Source of the DNA: an uncultured Nitrospirales bacterium
Lineage (GTDB): Bacteria; Hydrogenedentota; Hydrogenedentia; Hydrogenedentales; GCA-2746185
DNA: 14,064 nt
Assembly (NCBI GenBank): GCA_964449475.1
Contig: CAYUZD010000025.1
Location: 3,672 to 17,735 of the forward strand
Direction: 5' to 3'
In this document: piece after piece, positions 3,726 through 7,138 of the stretch
Position numbering within the stretch: position 1 is the stretch's first letter
Layout of the letters: each line of letters begins with the position of its first letter
Position numbers and translations under genes: made by a program
Notes under the pieces: generated by a model
Seen by the model: the letters and a program-made list of their open reading frames with translations, nothing else
Databases searched by the model: none
Told to the model about the DNA's origin: nothing

Positions 3726-5501
3726 ATGGAAAACCCTATCGGAGATGGACTCACCGCGTTCGAGGCCGCCCTGGGCCGCCTCGACGCCGCGCTGGCTCCC
3801 TACGCCGAACTCCACGGGGAAGTTTTCGCCGAGTCCCAGGCCTGGCGCGACCTGCTTACCTACAAACTCGTCCCGCACATGGCGGGTACCGGCTGCCTCG
3901 TCGCCGCGGTCACCGGCGGCACCAACACCGGCAAATCGACCGTGTTCAATCTGCTCGTGGGCCGCACCGCGAGTCCCATGGCCAGCACCGCCGCCGCCAC
4001 CTGCCACCCCGTGCTCGCCGCCAACGCCCGGCGCGCGGCCGAATCGCTCGACGCCAAGCTCGTGCCCGAATTCAAACCGCGCACGCTCGATGTCGCCGCG
4101 CACGCGACCGATCCCGCGCTGCCCGCCGAGGCGCTCTTCGTCGTACGCGACGATTCGCTGCCCGATCATCTCGTGCTGATGGACACGCCCGACGTCGATT
4201 CCATCATGCGGCAGAACTGGGAGGTCACCGCGCACCTCCGCGCGGCCGGCGACGTCATGATCGCCGTCATCACCGGCGAGAAGTACAAGGACGACCGCGT
4301 CGTGCAGTTTTTCCGCCAGGCCGCCGCGTCCGGGCGCGTGATCGTCCCCGTGATGAACAAGGCGAACCCGGCGAACGACTTCGCCGTCGCGCGCCGCCAG
4401 CTCGCCGATTTCTGCGCGGATGTCGGGACCGATTCACCGGTCTTCGTGATCCCGCACGATTTCAGCATCGGCGACAACCTGCAAACGCCCGTCCGCGCAC
4501 TCGACGGCGCGCTCGAACTGCGCGCGCATCTCGAATCGCTCGACGTCGCCGCGATCAAGTCCCGCGTCTACGAGGGCACCGTCGCCCGGTTCATCGCCGA
4601 CGCCGAATCGTTCCTCGGCCGGCTCGAGGCCGCCGCCGAACCCCTCCGCGAAGTGGACGACGCGCTTGCCGGACTCGTGGACGCCGCCGCCGAAACGTAC
4701 GACCCCGTGCCCGGCCGCGAGGTCGGCGGACTCTTTCATGCCTACGTCCAGTCCAAGCGCGGGCCCATTCGCCGCACCATCGGCGCGACCAGCGCCACCG
4801 TCGTGCGCGGTGCCGGCGCGCTCACCCGCGCCGTCCGCGGCGCCTTCGTCCGCCGCGCCACGCTCGAGGCGCCCGACACGCCCGCCGCAAACGCCGCCGA
4901 TGACGCGCTGCGTGCGTTGCACCGCGACGCGGTCGAACGCATCGCGCGGGACCTCGTCGCCGAGTGCGCCGATCGCGCGCGCACCTTCGGCCAGCCTGCC
5001 CGCGGCATCATCGGCGATCGCTTCGCCGAACTCGATGCGGAGGCGGCCTGTGCCGCCGTGTCCGCCGAGGCGTTGCACCCGGGTCCCCTCTCCGAAGCGT
5101 TTGAGCAGCATGCGCAGAAGACGCTCGACGCATGGTGGCAGGACCACAAGGGCCGCCGCCGCGCGCTCGAGGCGCTCGACGCCGTCCTCTCCGTGATGCC
5201 CGCCGCCATCGCCGCGCCGATCGCGCTGCACACCGGCGGGCTCGGCGCGGCGGAGGCCGCCGTGTTCCTCGGACCGTTCGCGGCGCAGTTCGTCGCGCGC
5301 GTGATGGAGTACCAGTTCGGCGACGCACTCTTCGATTTCCTGTCGCCGTGGAAGAAGGAGCAGCGGGCCCGCCTGCGCGGCGCGCTCGCGGCGCACGTCG
5401 CCGGCGCGGGGCTCGCGCCGCTCCATGCCGCCCTCGGCGCGATGCAGGGCGAACCCCTCGACACCATGCGGAGCGCGCTCGAATCATGCCGGAATCGCTG
5501 A
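3726..5501 (+). CDS. Dynamin-like / mitofusin-like large P-loop GTPase, soluble partner (591 aa), with non-canonical G3 and G4 motifs
   Basis: Walker A/G1 AAVTGGTNTGKST (GKS at about nt 3930-3938). G3-like hhhhDTPD (LVLMDTPDVDS, 4182-4193). G4-like NKAN (4356-4367). A long alpha-helical, Ala-rich C-terminal half follows. Start 3726 (MENPIG...) is preferred over 3666 because codons in 3666-3725 (ATT, TAT, CAA) are atypical for this genome and a promoter candidate overlaps that region. It is a paralog of the downstream gene. Confidence 0.8.
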   Translation: MENPIGDGLTAFEAALGRLDAALAPYAELHGEVFAESQAWRDLLTYKLVPHMAGTGCLVAAVTGGTNTGKSTVFNLLVGRTASPMASTAAATCHPVLAANARRAAESLDAKLVPEFKPRTLDVAAHATDPALPAEALFVVRDDSLPDHLVLMDTPDVDSIMRQNWEVTAHLRAAGDVMIAVITGEKYKDDRVVQFFRQAAASGRVIVPVMNKANPANDFAVARRQLADFCADVGTDSPVFVIPHDFSIGDNLQTPVRALDGALELRAHLESLDVAAIKSRVYEGTVARFIADAESFLGRLEAAAEPLREVDDALAGLVDAAAETYDPVPGREVGGLFHAYVQSKRGPIRRTIGATSATVVRGAGALTRAVRGAFVRRATLEAPDTPAANAADDALRALHRDAVERIARDLVAECADRARTFGQPARGIIGDRFAELDAEAACAAVSAEALHPGPLSEAFEQHAQKTLDAWWQDHKGRRRALEALDAVLSVMPAAIAAPIALHTGGLGAAEAAVFLGPFAAQFVARVMEYQFGDALFDFLSPWKKEQRARLRGALAAHVAGAGLAPLHAALGAMQGEPLDTMRSALESCRNR

Positions 5502-7138
5502 ACGAACTGTTGCACACGCTGGACGCGCTCGCGGCCTATGCCGGGCCGTGGGAGCCGCTCCGGCGCGAGGCGGACCTGCTCCGCGCGCGGCTCGACGAAC
5601 TCCGCGAGCGCGAGGTCCGGCTCGACGACCTGCTCGTCGTCGCGCTCGTCGGCGGGTCCGGTGTCGGCAAATCGACGCTGCTCAACGCGCTCGCGGGCGA
5701 CGAACTCGCGAAGACGTCCGAGTACCGCCCGTGCACCGCGATCCCCACGATCTATCACCCGCCCGGCGCGCGGTTGCCCTTCGGCGAAGGCTGGGAACGC
5801 AAGTCCGGTTCCGCGCTCGAAAACCTCGTCATCGTGGACACGCCCGACTCCGACACCATCGTCCGCGAGCATCGCGCGCTCGTGCAGCAGGCGTTGCGCG
5901 AGTGCGATCTCGTCGTAATGTGCGCGGACTCGGAAAAATATCTCGACGAAGCGACGTGGTCCCTCCTGCGCCCGCTCAAGGACGAGCGCGCGCTCGTCTG
6001 CGTTGAGACCAAGGCCTCAGCCGCGCCGAGCATCCGAGAGGACTGGTTGCGGCGGCTCGGCGAGGCCGGCATCCGCGTCTCCGGTTACTTCCGCGTGAAC
6101 AGCATCCGCACCTTCGACCGGAAAGTCGCGGGCCGCGCGCCCGGCCCGGACGAGTACGACTTCGCCGCGCTCGAGGCGTTCCTCGCGAAGGAACTGACCG
6201 CCGACCGCATCCGCCGCATCAAACGCTCGAACACCGCCGGGCTCCTCGCAAAGACCATCGCCACGCTCGAAGAACGCGTCGCCGCGCGCACACCGGGCCT
6301 CGACGAGGCGGACGCCGCACTGCGCGCCGCGGAGGCCGCGCTCGCGCAAACCGCGCACGACATCGTGCGCCGGCGCCTGTTTACCGAACCGCACCTCTGG
6401 AACTACGCGCTCGGCCGCGAGATCGGCCTGCGCTCGAAGGGGTTCGTCGGCGCGCTTTATCGTCTGGTCGAATCGGTCCGCACACTGCCCGCGCGCCTCT
6501 CCACGTGGTCGCTCTGGCCCGTGCGGTCCGCCGCCGGCCACCGCGCCGCGCGCATTCTCGGCGACGCCGGTCTCTTCGAGGAACACCTCGACCTTGGCTC
6601 CGACGAACTTCGCCGCGCGTTCGACTCGCAGGCCAGCCACGTCCGTCTCGCGATGGCGCAGGCGGGGTTCGCGCCGATCGCGCGCGACGGCGAGTTTGAG
6701 GCGTTCACCGCGAAACTCAGCGTGGCCGTCGAGACCGTCCTGCGCGGCCCCGCACGCGATCGCGTCGTCGCGCGGGCCCGCGCGCTCACAAGCTGGCCGC
6801 TCGCCGTCCTGCTCGACGCCGCGCCGGTCGGATTCTTCGGCTACACCGCGTTCCTGCTCGTCACGGATTACTTCCAGGCGGATGTCTGGACCGGCCCGGA
6901 ACTGATCCACGCGACCACCGTCCTCGGGATCATGCTCGTCGTCGAAATCTTCGGGCTGTCCGCCGCCGCGCGGTTCCTCGCGTGGAACGCCCGCCGCGCC
7001 GCCGCGCGCGATCTCCGGCTCGCACTCGCGCCCGGCACGCACGCATTCGCCGCCGAACAGCAAACGGTCGCCGAGGCACGGGCGCTGGTGGCTCAGTTGG
7101 ATCGCGCGTCCGAATCAATGCGCGAGAACGCGCGGTAA
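5486..7138 (+). CDS. Dynamin-like / mitofusin-like large P-loop GTPase, membrane-anchored partner (550 aa), with a C-terminal transmembrane hairpin
   Basis: The ATG at 5486 is in frame inside the long 5132..7138 ORF and overlaps the upstream stop (5499-5501) by 16 nt. G1 VALVGGSGVGKST. G3-like VIVDTPDSDT (5837-5848). Conserved EKYLDE. G4-like TKAS (6008-6019). Two adjacent hydrophobic helices near the C-terminus: LAVLLDAAPVGFFGYTAFLLVTDYF and TTVLGIMLVVEIFGLSAAARFLAW. The Arg-rich N-terminal extension 5132-5485 is rejected as an out-of-frame overlap with the upstream gene. Confidence 0.8.
   Translation: MPESLNELLHTLDALAAYAGPWEPLRREADLLRARLDELREREVRLDDLLVVALVGGSGVGKSTLLNALAGDELAKTSEYRPCTAIPTIYHPPGARLPFGEGWERKSGSALENLVIVDTPDSDTIVREHRALVQQALRECDLVVMCADSEKYLDEATWSLLRPLKDERALVCVETKASAAPSIREDWLRRLGEAGIRVSGYFRVNSIRTFDRKVAGRAPGPDEYDFAALEAFLAKELTADRIRRIKRSNTAGLLAKTIATLEERVAARTPGLDEADAALRAAEAALAQTAHDIVRRRLFTEPHLWNYALGREIGLRSKGFVGALYRLVESVRTLPARLSTWSLWPVRSAAGHRAARILGDAGLFEEHLDLGSDELRRAFDSQASHVRLAMAQAGFAPIARDGEFEAFTAKLSVAVETVLRGPARDRVVARARALTSWPLAVLLDAAPVGFFGYTAFLLVTDYFQADVWTGPELIHATTVLGIMLVVEIFGLSAAARFLAWNARRAAARDLRLALAPGTHAFAAEQQTVAEARALVAQLDRASESMRENAR

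Follow-up and report, generated by a model that had tools for sequence, protein, structure and literature searches.

Dynamin-like proteins (DLPs) of the BDLP/mitofusin class include Nostoc BDLP (2j68), Campylobacter Cj-DLP1/2 (5owv), M. smegmatis IniA (6j72) and Fzo1/MFN1/2. In P-loop GTPases the glycine of the G3 motif DxxG is among the most conserved residues; its amide senses the γ-phosphate, and the loaded-spring switch is believed to depend on its flexibility. The eukaryotic EHDs, which carry an EH domain, keep both DxxG and the G4 motif NKxD. In "pseudo-GTPases" such as the RGK family (DxWE), another residue stands in place of the switch II glycine, and nucleotide-binding elements are retained.

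Bacterial DLPs are usually encoded as operon pairs, and Cj-DLP1/2 hydrolyze GTP only via heterotypic G-dimerization (PMC6104087). The DLP pair DynA/DynB of Streptomyces acts in sporulation and cross-wall division; two TM segments anchor DynB in the membrane, and its partner DynA is soluble (PMC8748795). In the available part of the published work on DynAB, the mutants described affect the P-loop only and a non-canonical G3 is not mentioned. TbMfnL represents a new clade of the dynamin superfamily, described as having a G domain and coiled coils followed by two consecutive TM helices at the C-terminus; its bacterial homologues are from PVC bacteria and Proteobacteria, with members reported for Planctomycetes, Myxococcales and Gammaproteobacteria (10.1101/2023.06.28.546890).

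Here, two neighboring genes were analyzed within a DNA stretch of 14,064 nucleotides (the window) from a bacterium of the Hydrogenedentota. A first-pass annotation had described their products, P1 and P2, as paralogous GTPases with DTPD at G3 and NKAN or TKAS at G4, and had proposed that these substitutions predate the gene duplication, are kept under selection and mark a distinct subfamily.

Organization of the locus and domain architecture

The features of both genes are compiled in Table 1. The overlap of the two reading frames suggests translational coupling. The NTPase domains of P1 and P2 share 26% identity over 160 aa (BLASTP, E = 3e-9) with G1, DTPD and [NT]KA aligned; the proteins are true paralogues across this domain.

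Table 1. Features of genes A and B in the window
Feature	Position (nt)	Strand	Remarks
Gene A (P1, 591 aa)	3726..5501	+	A-type subunit; ORF start 3726 (MENPIG...); N-terminal helices, G domain, long helical region, hydrophobic hairpin
Gene A end/gene B start overlap	5483..5501	+	19 nt
Gene B (P2, 551 aa)	5483..7138	+	B-type subunit; ORF start 5483 (MPESLN...); architecture as P1, two-helix hydrophobic hairpin
P1 G1/P-loop GGTNTGKST	3915..3941	+	residues 64-72; Asn at fourth position
P1 switch II DTPDVDS	4182..4202	+	residues 153-159; D153 = Walker B Asp, D156 at G3 Gly site
P1 K186-Y187	4281..4286	+	family-specific [KR]-Y after strand β4; invariant in alignment A1
P1 G4 position NKAN	4356..4367	+	residues 211-214
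P1 hydrophobic segment	5175..5303	+	residues ~484-526; putative membrane hairpin/paddle; Kyte-Doolittle maxima 1.88 and 1.45
P2 G1/P-loop GGSGVGKST	5651..5677	+	residues 57-65
P2 switch I R82-P-C-T85	5726..5737	+	R-x-x-T; R82 and T85 invariant in alignment A3
P2 switch II DTPDSDT	5837..5857	+	residues 119-125; D122 at G3 Gly site
P2 K152-Y153	5936..5941	+	family-specific [KR]-Y
P2 G4 position TKAS	6008..6019	+	residues 176-179
P2 hydrophobic hairpin	6791..6982	+	residues ~437-500; two predicted membrane helices; Kyte-Doolittle maxima 1.77 and 2.05

AlphaFold2 (AF2) models of P1 and P2 were obtained with pLDDT values of 81 and 89, respectively. The G domain is flanked by N- and C-terminal helices which form a helical bundle (neck/HB1) and is followed by a helical trunk; in total, about 350 C-terminal residues constitute a DLP-like trunk with predicted membrane hairpins. 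In the models the hydrophobic segment of P1 is helical with low pLDDT, and the hairpin region of P2 comprises helices 438-464 and 471-515. The best structural matches were mitofusin/Fzo1, EHD4, IniA, Cj-DLP1/2 and BDLP. Similarity of the P1 and P2 sequences to solved DLPs is weak; Nostoc BDLP was the best PDB match of the family profile A3 (E = 7.5e-9), and the match extends beyond the GTPase domain, with profile positions 206-542 aligning to BDLP residues 281-609 in the helical and paddle region. The Pfam hits to Dynamin_N and MMR_HSR1 were weak though significant; against a gathering threshold (GA) of 27, Dynamin_N passed with 36.5 bits for P2 and fell short with 23.6 bits for P1. We conclude that P1 and P2 probably form a heterotypic, translationally coupled bacterial dynamin-like pair of the BDLP/mitofusin class, a variant distinguished by its acidic switch II.

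The G3 motif in switch II

All four tetrapeptides were found at the nucleotides given in the first-pass annotation, with DTPD encoded at 4182-4193 in P1 (residues 153-156) and at 5837-5848 in P2 (residues 119-122) GACACGCCCGAC. Their assignment to G3 and G4 agrees with the AF2 secondary structure. In P1, strand 149-153 terminates at D153; in P2, strand 115-119 terminates at D119 and helix α2 begins at residue 123. Since D153 and D119 close strand β3, the Walker B position, the residue three positions further on is the canonical Gly site. A regular-expression scan of both proteins revealed no canonical DxxG in either G domain; the sole DxxG is DHKG at residue 473 of P1, far outside.

Among close homologues, 120 for each protein, the switch II motif was invariant in all 118 that aligned with P1 and in 120/120 for P2. 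D119, P121 and D122 of P2 were also invariant in alignment A3. Furthermore, of 142 G domains drawn from about eight phyla, 140 carried D-x-P-D-x-D-[ST], and DxPD was found in all of the best 150 representatives of 50%-identity clusters; DxxG was seen neither among these 142 domains nor among these 150 representatives. As the second Asp of DxPD is kept in 140 of the 142 domains at a mutual identity of 20-30%, its conservation is far beyond chance. Both GAT and GAC encode it across homologues, indicating synonymous turnover. The replacement of the G3 Gly by Asp is under strong purifying selection, is older than the A/B duplication and defines an ancient clade.

The G4 position

NKAN and TKAS directly follow strand β5 in the AF2 models, which is the G4 position, and [NT]KxD was absent from both full-length proteins in the regular-expression scan. 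The fourth residue behaved differently from the G3 Asp. In the homologues of P1, N211 and K212 are invariant and the fourth position is N in 102/120 and D in 18/120. In the 120 close homologues of P2, Thr and Lys are conserved and the fourth position is S (48), D (21), T (15), a gap (15), H (8) or N (3), and also G or A. The canonical Asp thus occurs in a minority of the Hydrogenedentota sequences. It is retained by most B-type orthologues (NKxD, NQxD, NRxD, NHWD, QTHAD) from Planctomycetota, Desulfobacterota, Gammaproteobacteria, Chloroflexota and Actinomycetota, and A-type subunits have a degenerate G4 (NLLG, NQCE, NKLS, NRLP). Loss of the G4 Asp is therefore a local, variable and lineage-specific feature: in the Hydrogenedentota lineage the Asp was replaced by Asn in A, where only N or D is found, and lost in B, where the position is variable, so that guanine recognition may be locally weakened or altered.

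Hence, the proposal that both substitutions arose before the duplication and were maintained by selection holds for G3 and fails for G4; an alignment of homologues supports DxPD, but not [NT]KA[NS], as a family-wide motif. Homologues with canonical motifs, which had been named as a sign of lineage-specific drift, exist for G4 and were not found for G3.

As the guanine-specifying Asp is gone, P1 and P2, or all A-type subunits, could be ATPases or promiscuous for XTP and ATP in the manner of EHD1-4. NKAN corresponds to the D-to-N change that gives engineered GTPases specificity for xanthine nucleotides, and the restriction to N or D in 120/120 Hydrogenedentota A proteins points to a base contact that is altered but retained. 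However, EHDs bind ATP despite their NKxD, so that G4 alone predicts the nucleotide poorly. Among the 18 A proteins with D, the nearest neighbor also has D in only 10, and this repeated exchange among close relatives suggests that N and D are nearly equivalent here; in B the residue varies freely, and B orthologues elsewhere mostly look guanine-specific. We regard a changed nucleotide specificity as possible, though less likely than not.

If a duplicated GTPase gene had drifted or decayed in this lineage, the motif changes would be devoid of functional meaning. Such a history would account for the B-protein G4 position, whose fourth residue (S/T/D/H/G/A/gap) behaves as a relaxed site. But both ORFs are intact, hundreds of contigs encode full-length homologues with 49-100% identity, and the G3 Asp is conserved across phyla despite the turnover of its codons. 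As an explanation of the locus drift is thus very unlikely; it is refuted for G3 and is the simplest description for the fourth G4 position in B.

Other nucleotide-site motifs and asymmetry of the subunits

The remaining nucleotide-binding elements are well preserved. G57, G60, G62, K63 and S64 of the P2 P-loop are invariant in alignment A3 (20-49% identity), and across the 142 G domains 84-100% conservation is seen for G/K/S of the P-loop, for the Walker B Asp and for Thr/Ser of switch I. After strand β4, these domains share a further motif, [KR]-Y, with Tyr in 142/142 and a preceding Lys or Arg in 139/142.

Other positions distinguish the two subunits. P-loops read GGTN.GKS or GPTQ.GKS in A-type and GGTG.GKS in B-type proteins; a switch I Arg is present in 83/84 B-type sequences, and the same position is Ala in 40/58 A-type sequences. 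A-type subunits are characterized by Asn or Gln in the P-loop, lack of the switch I Arg and a degenerate G4; B-type subunits combine GGTGxGKS with R-x-x-T and, in most cases, N[KQRH]xD.

These data bear on the idea that P1 and P2 are pseudo-GTPases, i.e. structural or regulatory scaffolds which bind nucleotide or nothing and have lost switch and hydrolysis together with the G3 Gly and G4 Asp. Both proteins lack these canonical residues, G4 is degenerate throughout the A-type subunits, and G3 variants without Gly, such as DxWE of RGK proteins, go with atypical cycles. On the other hand, the P-loop, Walker B and switch I residues are kept; the replacement Asp is itself conserved together with P121, D124 and [KR]-Y, as expected for a rebuilt rather than a decaying active site, and most B-type members retain NKxD. 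That P1 and P2 are pseudo-GTPases is therefore improbable, and a pure binding-only protein is likewise unlikely because P-loop Lys/Ser, switch I Thr and Walker B Asp are conserved.

Distribution and annotation of the family

In a search of cluster representatives, 3920 passed E ≤ 1e-3, and with a threshold of E ≤ 1e-10 there were 1599. The family spans at least eight phyla, with members in Hydrogenedentota, Planctomycetota, Desulfobacterota, Methylococcales and other Gammaproteobacteria, Chloroflexota, Actinomycetota and others; thousands of actinobacterial proteins belong to it. As had been suggested, the G3 Asp marks a distinct group, but one far larger and older than supposed and not confined to the Hydrogenedentota. 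Its members constitute a very large, unnamed clade with the signature of an acidic switch II, D-x-P-D-x-D-[ST], plus [KR]-Y after β4.

The order A-then-B was conserved with changing neighbors (loci L001-L008, L011, L018, L020, L022-L026, L028-L035 and others, including L087 of Nonomuraea), and the genes overlapped or abutted in L001, L003, L005, L006 and most of L007-L086. No third partner gene was conserved across phyla in the compared neighborhoods. The pair does not lie in a defense island; it is surrounded by housekeeping genes which differ between genomes. Anti-phage defense GTPases (PADLOC LeoA/LeoBC and others) were considered and rejected; LeoA reached only 14.9 and 24.8 bits, with matches at P-loop level.

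The A and B proteins have no model of their own in Pfam, NCBIfam or PADLOC, and homologues are mislabeled as "ribosome-binding GTPase", "ABC transporter", "EcfA2" or, for some actinobacterial ones, "YfjP family". Definition of the family by its signature would allow many annotations to be corrected. The NCBIfam YfjP model matched none of five family members scanned, including a Nonomuraea protein labeled "YfjP family GTPase"; it was neither among the matches listed for P1 nor among the best 25 of 79 families for P2.

Names such as "50S ribosome-binding GTPase" and "YfjP family GTPase" imply ribosome-associated GTPases of the Era/EngA/YfjP type. Pfam MMR_HSR1 indeed scored 28.6 and 41.1 bits against a GA of 21.9, NCBIfam Era and Der matched the P-loop weakly, and phmmer found EngA in the PDB, Era/EngA-type proteins scoring on the G domain alone. 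Yet all these matches are confined to the generic G domain, and NCBIfam Era, Der and MnmE reached 20-32 bits, far below their cut-offs of 116-380; P1 and P2 contain no KH or other RNA-binding domain, their C-terminal part is DLP-like with predicted membrane hairpins, and whole-chain comparisons by structure and by profile gave mitofusin and BDLP as the best matches. YfjP of E. coli K-12 itself has only 287 aa and a canonical G3 DLPG, which speaks against placing P1 and P2 in the YfjP family. A ribosomal GTPase is thus extremely improbable.

Discussion

For the dynamin-like pair favored here, each subunit would pack its TRAFAC G domain against a helical bundle; a long helical trunk would follow, and a hydrophobic hairpin would serve as membrane anchor. 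By analogy with Cj-DLP1/2, the G domains of A and B probably dimerize across their nucleotide pockets, and tethering or remodeling of membranes would then be powered by NTP hydrolysis. The conserved Asp occupies the site where the Gly amide senses the γ-phosphate, and its backbone NH could still make this contact. As to the role of its side chain and the catalytic consequence, we infer, purely by reasoning, that the carboxylate, the neighboring Asp and the conserved Lys/Tyr/Arg most likely form a charged network. Such a network could hold the attacking water or an additional cation in place, or it could lock switch II; the outcome would be a rigid, assembly-dependent switch replacing the glycine hinge. 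Results of the Ras G60A type suggest that a residue other than Gly could block the canonical switch here, and hydrolysis by P1 and P2 might therefore be slow or absent. A biochemically studied member of the DxPD family was not found in the literature.

More speculatively, and with considerable doubt, the DxPDxD[ST]/[KR]-Y clade may form a branch of the dynamin superfamily with a mechanism of its own. There, an acidic cluster in place of the switch II glycine hinge would bind a second cation or directly activate water, and the subunits of an obligate heterodimer would differ in nucleotide or role, the A-type (P-loop Asn/Gln, no switch I Arg, degenerate G4, here NKAN) providing a non-guanine or regulatory site and the B-type (R-x-x-T, usually NKxD) the catalytic GTPase. 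The clade hints at a different chemistry of switch II among dynamin-superfamily proteins; being natural, ancient and very large, with the rest of the catalytic core kept, it offers a ready test of the extent to which the glycine is essential. If Streptomyces DynAB and/or the mitochondrial MfnL of trypanosomes belong to it, this unrecognized chemistry would already underlie known machines of cell division and organelle shaping.

Comparison with known systems

P1 and P2 share with the BDLP/mitofusin class the trunk and paddle, as seen in the profile match with BDLP; their predicted C-terminal hydrophobic hairpin resembles the paddle of BDLP or the TM hairpin of mitofusin, and their side-by-side genes resemble the operon arrangement usual for bacterial DLPs. 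Mitofusin has DSPGTDV, with a spacing equal to that of DTPDSDT in P2, and its G4 NRWD resembles NKWD, NQWD and NRWD of B-type members. Unlike this class, the family has an invariant Asp at G3 (DxPD instead of DxPG), an extra invariant [KR]-Y after β4 and A-type subunits with degenerate G4, P1 and P2 both being without [NT]KxD; with 550-600 aa its members are also smaller than most DLPs. EHD ATPases of the dynamin superfamily (EHD4, 5mtv) are among the structural matches. RGK proteins are unrelated Ras-like small GTPases with another replacement residue; they are unpaired, do not remodel membranes and lack DxPDxD[ST].

Two systems were compared by description only. For TbMfnL, "conserved G1 to G4 motifs" are reported (10.1101/2023.06.28.546890), unlike the DxPD family. 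As for Streptomyces DynA/DynB, the filamentous actinomycetes Nonomuraea and Streptosporangium harbor the same DxPD A-then-B pair, and its B subunit has two TM helices. The Nonomuraea proteins comprise 537 aa with P-loop K64 and 540 aa with P-loop K66; DynA (K74, ~545 aa) and DynB (K129, ~600 aa) as reported for S. coelicolor fit this pair if DynB is N-terminally extended. It is possible that DynA/DynB are identical with the family pair, in which case genetic systems for studying the motif already exist.

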